A DNA stretch of 64,000 nucleotides, taken from the NCBI GenBank assembly GCA_963712005.1, contig CAVQGK010000018.1, forward strand, positions 105,503 to 169,502, written 5' to 3'. Position 1 is the first letter of the stretch. Every line of letters starts with the position of its first letter. This document shows, in pieces, positions 19,226-55,180 of this stretch. A program made the translations under genes and the position numbers. Below the pieces are notes generated by a model. It did no database searches and was not told the DNA's origin. It saw only the letters and a program-made list of their open reading frames with translations. This DNA comes from an uncultured Chloroflexia bacterium (GTDB lineage Bacteria; Chloroflexota; Ktedonobacteria; Ktedonobacterales; JADMIN01).

Positions 19226-20056
19226 CTAGAGCCTGTTATGCACTAGCAGTACAGGAATCTGGCGATGCAGCATCAGGCAGGCAAAGGCCACGAAATGCAG
19301 ACCCGCCAAGACCTCGGGCAGCCGCTCGTAGTCACGCGCCAAGCGGCGGAAGCGGGAGGCCCAGGCAAAGCCGCGCTCGACGACCCAGCGGCGCGGCAGG
19401 AGGACAAAGCCGTGCTTGGCCGCGGGCAGCTTGACCACTTCCAGGCGGATACCATGTGCTTGGGCGGCATCGGCAGCATCTTGGCCGGTGTAGCCTTGAT
19501 CCACGTAGGCGACTGCCACCGACTCCCCCGTTACTTCCTGCACCGCGGCGCTCAAGCGTTCAACCTGCGCCCGATCCTGGGCATCCGCCGGAGTGACATG
19601 GAGCGCGAGCAGATGGCCCAGCGTGTCGACGGCGGCATGCACTTTGGAGCCCTTCCGGCGCTTGTGCCCGTCGTACCCGCCCCGTGCGCCGCTTTCCGGC
19701 GTCGATTGCAGGGTACGACTGTCGAGAATCGCGGCCGACGGCTGGCCCGGGCGCCCCGCGGCCACGCGGAGCAGCAGACGCAGGTCGTCGACCATCGCCT
19801 CGAAGACGCCGGCGGTCAGCCAGCGGCGGGTCTGTTGATAGACGGCTTCCCAGCGCGGGAAGTCATGGGGCAACAGGCGCCATTCCGCGCCCGTGCGCAC
19901 CAGCCAGCGGAGCGCGTTGAAGACCTCGCGCAGGTCGTGCCGTCGTTGCGGCGCGTCTTCCCGCACCAGGGCCAAATACGGCGCGACGAAGGCCCATTCT
20001 TCGTCGCTGACATCACTGGGGTAGGGTTTGCGTGGAGCAAGTGGTGGAGTAGCCAT
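19226..20056 (-). CDS. IS5-family DDE transposase with DUF4096 N-terminal domain
   Basis: 276-aa ORF: [17 protein letters not shown]...[15 protein letters not shown] (DUF4096), then DSRTLQST...[10 protein letters not shown]...YVDQGYTG...[11 protein letters not shown] (DDE_Tnp_1). Confidence 0.9.
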
Positions 20057-20104
20057 GCCTCCATCCTATCACCCCCTCCAGGGCGAGTTCATAACAGCCT
20101 CTAG
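19226..20104 (-). mobile_element. IS5-family insertion sequence (~0.88 kb) flanked by CTAG
   Basis: Terminal inverted repeats GAGCCTGTTATG (19229-19240) and CATAACAGCCTC (20090-20101) have one mismatch. CTAG is present at 19226-19229 and at 20101-20104. Confidence 0.8.
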
Positions 20105-20118
20105 TACTACAGTGACGG

Positions 20119-20715
20119 TTACGTGACGAACGGGGCGTCAGCCTCCGGGTGCAGGATGCCCAGGATGGTGTCCCAGAGACCGCGGGTGCGCCAGAGGCTG
20201 TAGCGCTGGTAAAGAATTGGCCATCGGATGGCCGAGGCTGGAGCTGGGGCTGGGGCTGGGGCTGGGGCTGGGGCTGGGGCTGGGGCTGGGGCTGGGGCTG
20301 GGGCTGGGGCTGGGGCTGGGGCTCGCCAACTGCGCCCGCTGCGCATCACGGCGAGGATCCCCTCCAGGACGCCCCGATGTGGGTAGCTTGTGCGCCAGCG
20401 CGCCAGCTGCAGCGGAGGCAGCAGCGGGGCAATCTGGTCCCAGGCAGCCTCGCTAAGGGCCGCTGTTCCGGCCAACTGGGACGCAGGTCCCGGTGCTGCC
20501 GGATCACGGGTGACTTCCCAACGCTCCGGGGTCTGGTCTCGCGCCCGCCGCAGGGCATGCGCGTGTCCTGCACCCGCTTGGTGGGTGCGCCGAAAGCGCG
20601 ACCAGGCTAGCAGGTGCCGCTGCTGCTCCGGTGCGGTTGCCGCCGCACAGACGAAGCGGCGTATCTCCGGGACGCTCAGCGGAACGAGGGCGTTTGCTTT
20701 CATGCCTCCCCCTTT
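20119..20715 (-). CDS. Downstream -1 frame of IS701-like copy A: transposase C-tail plus DUF4096-like HTH with an (AP)n insertion
   Basis: The -1 frame reads ...RKGGGMKANALVPLSVPEIRRF...WSRFRRTHQ... then LSEAAWDQIAPLLPP...GILAVMRSGRSWR(AP)nASAIRWPILYQRYSLWRTRGLW. It is entered at the heptamer A_AAG_GGG (20709-20715). Confidence 0.55.
   Translation of the reverse strand, partial: KGGGMKANALVPLSVPEIRRFVCAAATAPEQQRHLLAWSRFRRTHQAGAGHAHALRRARDQTPERWEVTRDPAAPGPASQLAGTAALSEAAWDQIAPLLPPLQLARWRTSYPHRGVLEGILAVMRSGRSWRAPAPAPAPAPAPAPAPAPAPAPAPAPAPASAIRWPILYQRYSLWRTRGLWDTILGILHPEADAPFVT
20234..20323. repeat. Hexanucleotide microsatellite (GGGGCT), 13 perfect plus 2 degenerate units
   Basis: Direct reading: gaggct ggagct then ggggct x13 (20246-20323). 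On the minus strand it translates as (AP)n. Confidence 0.95.
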
Positions 20716-21911
20716 TCGTGCCGCCTGGTAGTGGGCGCAGGTGGCGTGGGAGTGAGACGGGCGCGGGCGACTTCGAGGGCCGCGTGCGTCAGCAGGGCCA
20801 AGGTCATATGGCGCAGCCACGCATCGTAGCGACGGACTTCGTACTCGTCCAGACCGACCTCCCCCTTCGCCTGCTCAAAGGCCACCTCAATCGTCCAGCG
20901 CCGCCCCGCTACCCCTACCAGCTCCTCCAACGGGGTCACTTCAGGCCCGTACGCCCGGAAATACTTCAACTCCGGTGCCGCAGCGAGCTGCTGGGGGTCG
21001 GGCCGCTCGGGCAGGCTGCGCCGTATCAGCAGCCACTGCGCCCGTCCCGGCGCCACATCCACGTAGGGCAGGCGCAGCCACGCCCACTCATACCAGCGCG
21101 GCCCTTGGCTCCCCTGTCCAGCGCTCAATCGGGTCCAGGCTCGGGCGGGCAGGGCCGCAGCCAACGCAACCACCGTGCGTGGACGCCCCCGACTCCACAC
21201 GGTATGGCTGCTGGTCACTCCCAGGACATAGGCGCGGTCCTGCCCTTCGAGCCAGCCGCGCAGCTCATCGCTGCCACAAACGGTGTCGCCGACGACCCAG
21301 CGGGCCGGTACCCCGGCCGCAAATGCGCGCGCCAGCATCACGCGGGCCAGCTCTCCCTTCGTCGCAAAGGCCACCTCGGCAGGAATATGGGCTTCGGCCC
21401 GGCGCGCGCCGTCCGCCGCCCAGGCTTCGGGCAGATACAGCGCCCGGTCCAGGAAGGCCGCTCCGCGGGCGCTGGCATAGAGCAGAAACACCCCGATCTG
21501 CTGATTCTCGCGCCGCCCCGCCGTCCCGCTATACTGGCGTGCCACCCCCGCCGACTTGGTCCCCTTCTTCACGAAACCCGTCTCATCGACCACCAACACG
21601 CCACTGGCTTCCTCGCCCAAATGCTCCACCACATACGCGCGCAGCGTATCCCGGACCGCCTCCGCGTCCCAGCCAGCGTCGGTAAACAGCCGCTGGACCC
21701 CTTGGGGACCGGGCTCGCCCAGCGCCTCGGCCAGCTGCCAGCTATTACGTCGCTCCACCGGACCGAGCAACCCTGCCAGATACCGCCGGGCTCGCTCGCG
21801 CATCTCGTTGCGGTGAAAGGCGCGGCCAATGCGCGCCTGGATCTCGTCGAGGGTTGTCCGTACCACGCTCGCTTCTTCTGGTGTTTCCTCTACTGCCTTC
21901 CCCATGAGCAC
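20700..21911 (-). CDS. IS701-family DDE transposase (copy A)
   Basis: 403-aa ORF with VVDETGFVKKGTKSAGVARQYSGTAGRRENQQIGVFL...WVVGDTVCG...RWTIEVAFEQAKGEVGLDEYEVR, the IS701/DDE_5-type catalytic core. Confidence 0.9.
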   Translation of the reverse strand: MLMGKAVEETPEEASVVRTTLDEIQARIGRAFHRNEMRERARRYLAGLLGPVERRNSWQLAEALGEPGPQGVQRLFTDAGWDAEAVRDTLRAYVVEHLGEEASGVLVVDETGFVKKGTKSAGVARQYSGTAGRRENQQIGVFLLYASARGAAFLDRALYLPEAWAADGARRAEAHIPAEVAFATKGELARVMLARAFAAGVPARWVVGDTVCGSDELRGWLEGQDRAYVLGVTSSHTVWSRGRPRTVVALAAALPARAWTRLSAGQGSQGPRWYEWAWLRLPYVDVAPGRAQWLLIRRSLPERPDPQQLAAAPELKYFRAYGPEVTPLEELVGVAGRRWTIEVAFEQAKGEVGLDEYEVRRYDAWLRHMTLALLTHAALEVARARLTPTPPAPTTRRHEKGEA

Positions 21912-22152
21912 TCCTCCCTCCAGCTCTCTCGGGAAGTGTACCCATCTTGTCTCTAACCGTCACTGTAGTACTAGATAGAGGCAGGAAAATATATAGACTT
22001 GCCATTCCCTTGCTTGAATGCTATATTGCCTGTGAGCTATCGCTCTCGCCCTGGGGCATCATGGCGTGGAGCGCGACCCCTGGAAGCTCCTGGTGTGAAT
22101 CGGGAGAGATGTCACACCGTCGTGTTCTGCCATAGAAACACGACAAAACTTG

Positions 22153-48222: not shown

Positions 48223-48249
48223 TACTACAGTGACAGTTAAGCAGGAAGA

Positions 48250-49509
48250 ATGGTAGACTGCTTCGAAGAGGTGAAGCAGATGACCAACGAAGAGAGCAAA
48301 AGCCAACCAGCCGAAGGCGTAGACGATTTGTCGGAGTACGCCGAGGCGGAGCTGACCCAGGTGCATGCCCGCATCGGGCCGCACTTTCGGCGAGCGGAGG
48401 CACGCCAGCGAGCGCACCGCTTCCTGCACGGATTACTGGCTCCGATCGAACGCAAGAATGGGTGGCAGCTGGCAGAAGAACTGGGGGAGCGCGGACCACA
48501 CGGCGTGCAGCGCCTCTTGGGGGAAGCCGACTGGGATGCCGAGGCGGTCCGCGAGGAGCTGCGGGGGTATGTGCTGGAGCATCTGGCAGAGGAGTCCGCG
48601 GTGCTGGTCGTGGATGAAACGGGCTTTCTCAAGAAAGGCAAGAAATCGGCTGGAGTCGCGCGCCAGTATAGTGGGACGGCGGGTCGGCGGGAGAATTGCC
48701 AAGTCGGGGTATTTCTGCTCTATGCCAGCGCCACAGGCGCCGCGTTCTTGGACCGTGCGCTCTATCTGCCCGAAGAATGGACCACGGACCGGGTCCGGTG
48801 CCGCGAGGCGGGTATTGCTGACGACGTGACGTTTGCCACCAAAGGGGTGCTGGCTCAACAAATGCTCCAGCGGGCTTTTGACGCGGGGGTCTCTGCGAGC
48901 TGGGTGGTCGGTGATACGGTCTATGGCTACGATGAATTGCGCCTGTGGCTGGAGGAGCAGGGCCGTCCCTATGTGGTCGCCGTGACCGGGACGCATACCG
49001 TGTGGGCGGCGGGACAGCAGCAGTCCGTGGCGCTGTTGGCCGCCCTCTTGCCGCCGGAGGCGTGGGTGGTGCTCTCGGCCGGAGAGGGAAGCCAAGGGCC
49101 ACGCCTCTATGAATGGGCGTGGCTGCAGTTGCCGCCCTCTCCCCAGCAACGCCGTGGACTGACCCGGTGGGTGCTGATCCGGCGGAGCTTGACGGATCCC
49201 AGCAAGAGAGCCTATTACCGGGTGGCCGGTCCCGCCACTACCACCTTAGCGGAGCTGGTGCAGGTGGCGGGCAGCCGTTGGCGGATCGAAGAGAGCTTTG
49301 AACAGGCCAAAGGAGAAGTCGGGCTCGATCACTATGAGGTCCGCGGCTTTAGCGCCTGGTATCGCTATGTGACCCTGGCGCTGTTGGCACACGCCGTGTT
49401 GGTCGTCCTGCGCGCGCAAGTGAACCCACCGGGGAAAAGGGGGAGCAGATTCAGGTGGTCTGCGCTGGAGCGTCGCAGAACTCCGCCGGCTGATGCACGC
49501 GCTAGGTGA
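48250..49509 (+). CDS. IS701-family DDE transposase (copy B)
   Basis: 419 aa, collinear with copy A (VVDETGFLKKGKKSAGVARQYSGTAGRRENCQVGVFL...RWRIEESFEQAKGEVGLDHYEVR). The last ~25 codons look out of frame. Confidence 0.85.
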   Translation: MVDCFEEVKQMTNEESKSQPAEGVDDLSEYAEAELTQVHARIGPHFRRAEARQRAHRFLHGLLAPIERKNGWQLAEELGERGPHGVQRLLGEADWDAEAVREELRGYVLEHLAEESAVLVVDETGFLKKGKKSAGVARQYSGTAGRRENCQVGVFLLYASATGAAFLDRALYLPEEWTTDRVRCREAGIADDVTFATKGVLAQQMLQRAFDAGVSASWVVGDTVYGYDELRLWLEEQGRPYVVAVTGTHTVWAAGQQQSVALLAALLPPEAWVVLSAGEGSQGPRLYEWAWLQLPPSPQQRRGLTRWVLIRRSLTDPSKRAYYRVAGPATTTLAELVQVAGSRWRIEESFEQAKGEVGLDHYEVRGFSAWYRYVTLALLAHAVLVVLRAQVNPPGKRGSRFRWSALERRRTPPADARAR

Positions 49510-49939
49510 GCCCGAGGAGGTGCGGGTGCGGCGCCTGTGGTGGTCCCACTTCCGTCGCGGGCATCAAGCCCAGGCTCAACGCTGTCATCGAGATCACCGG
49601 GCGACTCAAGCTCCCCACATTCCTGCCCGGCTTCCCCAGCCCACCCTGTTGCTCGGTCTCCCTCCGCTCACGGATGAATCCTGGGAGCAGCTTCGCCTCC
49701 TGCTTCCTCCTCACAAGCCTCCCACCGGCCGACCGGCAATCGATCATCGCCTGATCGTTGAAGGGATGCTCTGGATAGCACGCTCCGGCTCCTCGTGGCG
49801 CGAGCTACCCGGGCGGTATGGGCCCTGGACTACGGTAGCCAGTCGCTATCAACGCTGGTGGAAAGAGGGGTTGTGGATGCGCATCGTACAGACCTTGTTG
49901 GCTCCGGATAATCCTCCTTCTCCGGCTTCATCCCCGTAA
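49436..49939 (+). CDS. Downstream frame of IS701-like copy B: transposase C-tail plus DUF4096-like HTH
   Basis: The frame reads KGGADSGGLRWSVAELRRLMHALGEPEEVRVRRLWWSHFRRGHQ... then LTDESWEQLRLLLPPHKPPTGRPAIDHRLIVEGMLWIARSGSSWRELPGRYGPWTTVASRYQRWWKEGLW. It contains the same GAAAAGGGGGAG motif as copy A. Confidence 0.55.
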   Translation, partial: KGGADSGGLRWSVAELRRLMHALGEPEEVRVRRLWWSHFRRGHQAQAQRCHRDHRATQAPHIPARLPQPTLLLGLPPLTDESWEQLRLLLPPHKPPTGRPAIDHRLIVEGMLWIARSGSSWRELPGRYGPWTTVASRYQRWWKEGLWMRIVQTLLAPDNPPSPASSP

Positions 49940-50053
49940 CTGTCACTGTAGTATTAGAAACTGTACGAGAAGGGGTGATGTCCTCAAGAGCCCTCCAGGA
50001 GATACCCTACCCGAAATGAGTGTCTCAAACACAGTTCGGAGGGCATCCCTGGT

Positions 50054-55110: not shown

Positions 55111-55180
55111 CAGCCCAACTCCACCCAACTCCACCCAACTCCACCCAACTCCACCCAACTCCACCCAACTCCACCCAACT
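55111..55180. repeat. Tandem decamer (CCACCCAACT), 5 perfect plus 2 degenerate units
   Basis: cagcccaact, then ccacccaact x5 (55121-55170), then gtgctcaact. It begins 24 nt upstream of the WYL regulator ATG. Confidence 0.95.

Follow-up and report, generated by a model that had tools for sequence, protein, structure and literature searches.

A conserved and apparently programmed frame split at an A/G run in transposases of the IS701 family, described from a Chloroflexota genome

We describe an insertion sequence (IS) of the IS701 family in a 64,000-nucleotide stretch of DNA from an uncultured Chloroflexia bacterium (GTDB lineage Chloroflexota; Ktedonobacteria; Ktedonobacterales; JADMIN01; GenBank assembly GCA_963712005.1, contig CAVQGK010000018.1, positions 105,503 to 169,502 of the forward strand), which is called the window below and is numbered from its first letter. 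The element, copy A, is complete, measures 1866 bp (20105-21970) and carries its genes on the minus strand. Its transposase consists of two overlapping frames that meet at a slippery run, AAAAGGGGG. The upstream open reading frame (ORF1) holds the catalytic core, and the second frame (ORF2), which is -1 relative to it, reads RKGGGMKANALVPLSVPEIRRF...WSRFRRTHQ, the conserved C-terminal tail of IS701 transposases, continues into a DUF4096 helix-turn-helix (HTH) domain and stops within the terminal repeat. Comparison with relatives indicates that this split is a conserved, apparently programmed feature of IS701-like elements and is not private to copy A. Our reading, to which we give a probability of roughly 0.55, is that copy A makes a functional transposase through programmed -1 recoding at the run, most likely by ribosomal slippage. 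The features of copy A are as follows.

20101-20104, no strand: target-site duplication CTAG at the tail-proximal end, read from the sequence.
20105-20121, minus strand: terminal inverted repeat at the gene-downstream end, an exact 17-mer match that holds the ORF2 stop TAA (20119-20121).
20122-20457, minus strand: DUF4096 (PF13340), a domain of the HTH type that lies in the -1 frame and is broken by a microsatellite (Pfam, 1.1e-10, 42.1 bits, profile positions 1-48 of 76).
20236-20323, no strand: hexanucleotide microsatellite GGCTGG, 14.7 copies with 97% matches (TRF), which on the gene strand codes for (PA/AP)n inside DUF4096.
20575-20688, minus strand: C-terminal tail conserved in IS701 (LVPLSVPEIRRF ... 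WSRFRRTHQ), which by sequence reading is -1 relative to ORF1; its motifs are also -1 in 111 of 123 relatives.
20700-20703, minus strand: ATGA overlap of the ORF1 stop TGA (20702-20700) with an ATG in the ORF2 frame (20703-20701), kept in the copy A sublineage, L081 and L163-L168.
20700-21905, minus strand: ORF1, the DDE_5 / IS701 catalytic core, 401 amino acids from ATG 21905 or 403 from GTG 21911 (ORF list, Pfam, NCBIfam).
20708-20716, minus strand: slippery run A4G5, the proposed recoding site, with an in-phase A_AAG_GGG at 20709-20715 (sequence and comparison with relatives).
21954-21970, minus strand: terminal inverted repeat at the transposase-start end, an exact 17-mer match.
21971-21974, no strand: target-site duplication CTAG on the other flank, read from the sequence.

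The terminal inverted repeats (TACTACAGTGACGGTTA) are perfect over 17 bp, one more than the 16 bp given in a preliminary description of this DNA, which was otherwise right about the anatomy: the CTAG duplication, the IS701-type DDE frame that ends at 20700, the tail and then DUF4096 in the -1 frame, and the A_AAG_GGG in the zero frame are all found. The open frame of ORF1 extends over 20700-21911, and the start is probably the ATG at 21905, downstream of GGAGGA. ORF1 matches Pfam DDE_5 at 5e-48, and a conceptual fusion of the two frames scores 398 bits (cut-off 150) against the NCBIfam IS701 model NF033540 over fusion residues 21-382. Among the homologues returned by a protein search, P0001 is identical (100%) to ORF1.

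Members of the IS701 family are 1400-1550 bp long and are flanked by 4-bp repeats, and IS4, the family from which they were separated, has the absence of a frameshift among its hallmarks (PMC2266710). The duplications found here, CTAG at copy A and TTAG at a second copy in the window, copy B, are of the YTAG type, as the preliminary description had pointed out. The 1.4-1.5 kb length and the single ORF that it gave for the family do not apply here: the two elements measure 1866 and 1731 bp, the excess being due to the DUF4096 segment and, in copy A, also to the 88 bp microsatellite, and both copies, like 119 of 123 relatives, have the core in one frame and the tail in another. To our knowledge, the organisation of the IS701 family is that of a single ORF with no frameshift.

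At the site itself the zero-frame codons are GAA AAG GGG GAG GCA TGA, so that ORF1 terminates 5 nt past the A4G5 run, and the -1 frame reads AAA GGG GGA GGC ATG and onward as KANALVPLSVPEIRRF...WSRFRRTHQ. The overlap thus contains an in-phase heptamer of the X_XXY_YYZ type that is typical of -1 ribosomal frameshifting, and in E. coli A_AAG_GGG is reported as one of the -1 heptamers with the highest efficiency (PMC4066793). A lone in-phase heptamer within a frame overlap of 175 nt is by chance not improbable, and its significance derives from the comparison with relatives and not from the single occurrence. The sublineage of copy A retains (GAA or CTA) AAG GGG GAG GCA TGA with A_AAG_GGG strictly in phase. 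Where the codon ahead of AAG GGG is a leucine codon it is CTA, which makes up merely 3.6% of the leucine codons in those ORFs and which preserves the first A of the heptamer.

The conservation of the split was seen in a protein search and in a survey of loci. With the conceptual fusion as query, 118 of the 120 best matches (66-100% identity) are ORF1-only proteins of 350-455 amino acids, nearly all 390-415, which terminate at most a few codons past a conserved K-G-E or K-G-G motif, and just two are single polypeptides with both DDE_5 and DUF4096. With the tail and DUF4096 as query, each of the 119 matches is a short ORF of its own, called from a GTG or ATG within the conserved LSVPEVRRLL, and we therefore take these starts to be gene-caller artefacts. 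For the survey, 160 loci were fetched by scans with ORF1 peptides only, so that the sample is unbiased regarding the junction, and the frame was called by comparing the last core motif (GLDxYEVR) with the tail motif (WSxWRRxHQ), both of which are present in 123 loci, drawn from genomes as well as metagenomes. The tail was found in the -1 frame in 111 of these, in the +1 frame in eight and in the same frame as the core in four. The -1 state (90% of loci) extends across 50-90% protein identity and many phyla, and the hosts of the surveyed loci include Chloroflexota, Actinobacteria, Planctomycetota, Deinococcus, Cyanobacteria, Acidobacteria, Gemmatimonadota and Proteobacteria. The possibility, raised in the preliminary description, that copy A is simply a mutant of a family with a continuous ORF is answered by these numbers, and a private frameshift mutation in copy A is rejected by the homologue and the locus survey alike.

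The split relatives keep intact inverted repeats and 4-bp duplications (CTAG, TTAG or CTAA), and their tail-frame products are still strongly DUF4096-like (E 1e-20 to 1e-28). In one genome a single split element is present in four copies (L028-L031) that are 99.9-100% identical and have unrelated flanks; a split element has multiplied recently, and the split elements look alive. In most -1 loci the ORF2 frame offers no start codon (ATG, GTG or TTG) on the way from the run to the conserved tail, and in L019, L025, L027 and L034 the -1 frame opens only at the run, straight after a stop codon. A close zero-frame stop codon is common among the loci. Very often the ORF1 stop is a TGA arising from the Leu-Thr or Leu-Ser codons (CTG ACC / CTG AGC) of LxPLTVPE when read in the zero frame, for example in L172, L173 and L020-L036, and this origin explains the recurrent distance of about 23 nt from run to stop.

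Of the four in-frame loci, L049 and L050 carry extra indels and L145 and L150 are true single ORFs that have no run; the run is likewise missing from a clade of single-ORF DDE_5+DUF4096 proteins of 506-554 amino acids (including P0263 and P0365). In all single-ORF relatives the tail is contiguous with the core. The single-ORF protein P0088 does retain the run. We rejected it as a run-length "ON" allele, as its A5G5 equals that of split relatives and one extra base lies in the spacer instead. Two single-ORF proteins from the same 90% clusters, P0121 and P0123, do not qualify as naturally fused alleles either: in P0121 an indel farther downstream compensates and a proper LxPLSVPE motif is missing, and P0123 simply reads through in the zero frame.

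Of the 111 -1 loci, 105 have an A(n)G(m), A8 or G7 run within the overlap of the frames. The count of A, like that of G, varies from 0 to 8, and the total length peaks at 9-10 nt (57 of 83 unique contexts), which is about the length of an RNA:DNA hybrid. Where both bases occur, A precedes G in all recovered runs, the search pattern having been limited to that order. Loci with a pure A8 run are -1 and the locus with A7 is +1; the +1 cases are separate G6 or A7 lineages, or single variants, and in the great majority of loci the direction is -1. In the G6 clade the run is ATCGGGGGGAGAG or similar, at the same position in the linker, and a +1 shift is needed. A mostly actinobacterial clade has an in-phase C_CCA_AAA where other loci have A(n)G(m) (L039, L061, L068 and L072; Lentzea, Nocardia, Actinokineospora and Saccharothrix, with L061 from a Pyrinomonadaceae metagenome-assembled genome), and L059 has G_CCA_AAA. 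C_CCA_AAA is a heptamer of the ribosomal type and a poor motif for polymerase slippage. We also considered the G-rich run as a mere Shine-Dalgarno sequence for ORF2 and rejected this as a general explanation, as most loci have no in-frame start past the run.

Copy B, the second IS of this kind in the window, adds the following features.

48223-49953, plus strand: copy B, a related IS with 17-bp inverted repeats and a TTAG duplication; ORF1 at 48250-49509, and a tail and DUF4096 frame that extends to 49939 and is +1 (repeat match, alignment, Pfam).
49435-49443, plus strand: A4G5 run of copy B, in the ORF1 frame AAA AGG GGG (sequence reading).

The two copies align at the DNA level with a mean column identity of 78%, and the ends of copy B match those of copy A save one base. 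They share the 12-mer GAAAAGGGGGAG (49434-49445 in copy B), and the motif that the preliminary description had reported as kept in copy B is indeed present there. The frame relation is not kept, since the tail of copy B is in +1, not -1, relative to ORF1. The nearest relatives of copy B, with ORF2 products that are 88-90% identical, carry A5G5 (L162) and A6G5 (L161), and both are -1 with A_AAG_GGG in phase; the run of copy B is one A shorter. By this comparison copy B is probably a slippage mutant, with replication slippage or an assembly error as the simplest account, and we do not count it as separate evidence for a -1 heptamer.

Elements with the DUF4096 extension form a subgroup, which includes copies A and B, part of L001-L017 and most of the soil-metagenome loci. 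Against a Pfam cut-off of 34.3, the domain scores 42.1 bits in copy A (a partial match), 87.5 bits in copy B and 72-98 bits in nine relatives. The match of copy A is limited to profile positions 1-48 because the microsatellite interrupts the domain. Where copy A carries the microsatellite, P0121 has WREGPAGDMPWPILYQRY, and judged by that sequence the microsatellite is a recent expansion, which probably disrupts the HTH of copy A. Pfam and NCBIfam matches bear out the earlier view that copy A is an IS701 element carrying a domain that stands at the N-terminus of the transposase next to it: the adjacent IS5-family element (19226-20056) has DUF4096 at its N-terminus together with DDE_Tnp_1 (NF033580). 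In such IS5-family elements the domain is N-terminal, whereas in copy A it follows the IS701 tail and forms the very C-terminal end of a transposase of an unrelated type, DDE_5.

The preliminary description had further suggested that the frameshift serves to make a transposase-HTH fusion. The split itself has turned out to be conserved, but this purpose has not stood up, since relatives of 1.36-1.43 kb that have no DUF4096 show the same run and the same -1 split, with a tail frame that ends 25-35 amino acids past the tail motif. The frameshift is therefore not a device for reaching DUF4096. Single-ORF proteins that combine DDE_5, the tail and DUF4096 also exist among the relatives. From these comparisons, the frameshift is not tied to DUF4096, and the function that is conserved is to connect the catalytic core with the IS701 tail.

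Copy A is inserted at a CTAG beside the end of the IS5-family element (window 19226-20104). IS5-type genes directly adjoin the IS701-like element also in L171 (1-521) and L172 (1-822), and a paper on Deinococcus radiopugnans remarks on the same IS701/IS5 neighbourhood. The likely reason is that IS701 targets YTAG sequences that are made at IS5 ends. A terminator-like hairpin (GGCCATCCGATGGCC, then a T-rich stretch) lies at 20219-20233 on the minus strand, within ORF2 just past the microsatellite, a solitary match to the consensus whose meaning is uncertain. Elsewhere in the window, at 55114-55180, there is a perfect tandem 10-mer (CCCAACTCCA, 6.7 copies), which is unrelated to the IS701 elements.

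We modelled the single-ORF relative P0088 with AlphaFold2, using an alignment anchored on full-length sequences (pLDDT 85, pTM 0.86). In the model the position of the run falls in a linker of low confidence (residues ~384-395), which connects the last helix of the core with those of the tail, and the tail is predicted to form two helices (396-406 and 410-441) that are followed by the DUF4096 helices. The best PDB match of the model is the Tn5 transposase (E ~1e-10, ~485 aligned columns, 12% sequence identity). In the synaptic complex of Tn5, dimerisation of the transposase is brought about by C-terminal helices. In the model the helices of the IS701 tail are part of the Tn5-like fold, and their equivalence to the Tn5 dimerisation helices is assumed at the level of the fold, not residue by residue.

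ORF1 of copy A supplies the N-terminal region and the DDE catalytic core, and we propose that a minority of translation events would pass into the -1 frame at the A4G5 run (20708-20716), a continuation that would add the IS701 tail with its two predicted helices and, in this subgroup, the DUF4096 HTH. In copy A and its sublineage the shift would most likely occur by tandem tRNA slippage of the ribosome on the in-phase A_AAG_GGG, giving ...HEKG-GGMKANALVPLSVPEIRR.... By analogy with IS1 and IS3, the abundant product would be a core without the tail and the rare product the full-length enzyme, so that transposition would stay low. The model could suggest that the ORF1 product binds the element ends yet fails at the synaptic complex, in which case the rare full-length product may be the active enzyme. 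The Tn5 inhibitor differs from such a short product in being an N-terminal truncation made from an internal start, whereas the IS701-like product would be truncated at the C-terminus.

That some programmed recoding operates in the IS701-like family we regard as highly probable from the sequence comparisons, whereas for the recoding in copy A being ribosomal we see about even odds. The sequences show the anatomy of copy A, the conserved split, its association with the run and the recent spread of a split element; from these we infer slippage itself, the ribosome rather than RNA polymerase as its agent, and the roles of the two products. We favor the ribosome because of the in-phase A_AAG_GGG of the sublineage, the high efficiency reported for this heptamer in E. 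coli, the use of the rare CTA, the -1 state in 90% of the loci and the C_CCA_AAA clade. A number of observations weigh against this reading. Preservation of the heptamer, which the preliminary description had named as a check, was found in the copy A sublineage and in the relatives of copy B, and the direction of the shift is kept in most of the family, but family-wide an in-phase X_XXY_YYZ is present in just 50 of 87 unique -1 windows and missing from the other 37 (43%), so that ribosomal slippage is not the sole candidate. Among the 83 unique contexts, the first G is the first base of a codon in 39, the third in 37 and the second in seven, and between close relatives the boundary of A and G moves at constant total length (A4G7 versus A3G8, A4G5 versus A5G4). 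Lysine is encoded by AAA in 43% of cases at the run versus 23% in the bodies of ORF1. There are also clades with a +1 tail, with G6 in L046, L048, L056, L065 and L077 and A7 in L071. Compared with control windows of the same genes, the flanks show no excess of RNA structure (45 nt upstream, z = -0.28; 60 nt downstream, z = +0.81); the stimulatory element of a -1 ribosomal site is thus not apparent, and a conserved stimulatory structure near the run, which we had considered, was not detected by this comparison of folding energies. Copy A may in addition be individually impaired, its HTH being broken by the 14.7-copy microsatellite, and its ATGA stop/start overlap is preceded by GGGGGAGG, so that a separately initiated ORF2 is possible.

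Most of these points would fit programmed transcriptional realignment, in which RNA polymerase slips back on A(n)G(m) and adds one nucleotide in some mRNAs. An rG:dT wobble would tolerate the shifted hybrid, and normal translation of the edited mRNA would yield the same fusion. In favor of it, the phase of the run varies by lineage, with many windows lacking a canonical heptamer, and the total length, not the phase, is what is conserved, also when the A/G boundary shifts; AAA is enriched at the run, the order of A before G permits insertion and not deletion and hence leads to the -1 frame, and no stimulatory RNA structure is seen. The occurrence of both frame directions within one family (A8 -1, A7 +1, G6 +1) is taken in PMC3711429 as a sign of transcriptional realignment, and there are precedents in the A6G3 editing site of Sendai virus and in the T5C5 site of a Roseiflexus IS630 element (PMC5009743). 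At that heteropolymeric T5C5, however, slippage by bacterial RNA polymerase was reportedly undetectable unless a nascent hairpin lay next to it (PMC5009743), and no hairpin is enriched at the IS701-like runs. A4G5 and G7 are furthermore short for unaided slippage, the C_CCA_AAA clade is left unexplained, and the heptamer of the copy A sublineage is strictly in phase. On balance we consider realignment a serious but less likely explanation of the split in copy A, and for the family as a whole, polymerase slippage or a mixture of it with ribosomal slippage is plausible, as the varying phase points to. The stronger proposition, that a multi-phylum IS701 clade uses insertional slippage of the host RNA polymerase on short A(n)G(m) runs with neither a long homopolymer nor a hairpin, we hold only tentatively.

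Two further explanations dispense with recoding, and we find both improbable, the second slightly more so. According to one, the copy A sublineage makes two separate proteins that cooperate or antagonise each other, ORF2 being translated without any frameshift from the ATG that overlaps the ORF1 stop, with GGGGGAGG as its Shine-Dalgarno sequence. The ATGA overlap and this upstream sequence are kept in L081 and L163-L168, gene callers start ORF2 there, and the subgroup of copy B often has M, or V encoded by GTG, at the V of LSVPEV. The GGAGG is just 1 nt from the ATG, a poor spacing, and more generally such an arrangement is difficult to reconcile with the lack of start codons between run and tail in most -1 loci, with the four loci in which the -1 frame opens only at the run after a stop, with the contiguity of core and tail in all single-ORF relatives and with a model in which the tail helices are part of the Tn5-like fold. 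The other explanation is decay or phase variation at the DNA level, where the split would be an inactivating homopolymer indel and the other copies would be mobilised in trans by rare, active in-frame alleles. Indels are frequent in homopolymer runs, the run of copy B is one A shorter than those of its relatives, rare in-frame variants retain the run (P0088, P0309), P0121 has its compensating indel downstream, and the annotation pipeline PGAP appears to treat some copies as pseudogenes (there is no coding sequence under the copy in Deinococcus sp. QL22). Decay is not what one would expect, however, of a -1 state that is held in 90% of loci over such protein divergence and so many phyla, of ORF2 frames that are intact and still DUF4096-like, or of an element with four identical split copies in one genome; P0088 is in frame through an insertion in the spacer and not a change in run length, and whole single-ORF clades have no run.

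Returning to programmed recoding, the arrangement resembles that of the IS3 (IS911, IS3) and IS1 elements, which likewise have two overlapping frames in a -1 relation, a heptamer in the overlap, a rare full-length trans-frame product and wide conservation. In those elements a small DNA-binding protein is encoded upstream and the catalytic domain is gained through the shift, whereas in the family of copy A the complete DDE core already lies in the upstream frame, and what the shift contributes is the C-terminal tail, alone or together with the HTH. The usual heptamers also differ, being A_AAA_AAG, A_AAA_AAA and A_AAA_AAC in IS3 and IS1 and A_AAG_GGG or the phase-variable A(n)G(m) here, and many IS3-type sites have a stimulator whereas the IS701-like runs give no signal of a downstream stem-loop or pseudoknot. 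The IS630 and IS5 elements that use realignment likewise have a slippery run in the transposase gene and both directions among relatives. The T5C5 of the Roseiflexus IS630 element is also a heteropolymeric run of two bases in a Chloroflexota host, but it works by deletion of a C and needs a nascent hairpin, whereas the order of A then G at the IS701-like run predicts a 1-nt insertion, and no hairpin is enriched. The A6G3 site in the P gene of Sendai virus, a paramyxovirus, has the same shape of an A run followed by a G run, and one inserted G opens the -1 frame; as a viral RNA-dependent RNA polymerase acts there on an RNA template, the likeness is one of motif only. With canonical IS701 elements (IS701, ISRso17 and Deinococcus members) copy A shares the NCBIfam model, inverted repeats starting TACTACAG and the 4-bp YTAG duplication, and it differs from them in its 1866 bp, its split and its extra domain; one Deinococcus example is a single transposase of 432 amino acids.

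Our literature search found nothing relevant that pairs IS701 with frameshifting, slippage or recoding, although an earlier listing elsewhere is possible; the large recoding surveys that we searched do not list IS701, and the same literature search gave no description of insertional slippage on A(n)G(m) by a bacterial or cellular polymerase. Curated resources appear to be unaware of the split. The model NF033540 (363 positions) ends at fusion residue 382, just upstream of the recoding site, and leaves the conserved tail uncovered. For ISMdi28 (L169, NC_012987.1 48955-50313), the RefSeq protein WP_012778786.1 of 452 amino acids runs in the zero frame past the G-rich AIGGRG, a reading common to the G6 clade, into low-complexity sequence, and the conserved tail WSVWRRRHQ lies in the +1 frame; by this comparison the annotated C-terminus is probably not the real one. 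The split copy of Deinococcus sp. QL22 has no coding sequence in the table of its plasmid. The finding is best described, on the evidence of sequence comparison, as programmed recoding in an IS family that has not been credited with it, at an unusual site, at an unusual position in the protein and with an unusual C-terminal HTH graft.

The C-terminal DUF4096 shows that a transposase of another build can acquire an HTH of the kind usually found in IS5 transposases. The A(n)G(m) site with its variable phase offers a natural series of variants for separating ribosomal from polymerase slippage; if slippage by the polymerase were the true process, it would be a bacterial counterpart of the editing of the paramyxovirus P gene, with sister clades that reach the +1 frame via G6 or A7. 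If the recoding is real, many IS701 copies that are now filed as truncated transposases, pseudogenes, "DUF4096 hypothetical proteins" or wrong-frame read-throughs such as ISMdi28 would be intact and active, and IS censuses and pseudogene counts would change in Chloroflexota, Actinobacteria, Deinococcus and other groups. IS701 would then be another IS family that controls its transposition by recoding, and its layout would be unusual in that the core comes first and recoding provides a C-terminal tail, which synapsis probably requires.

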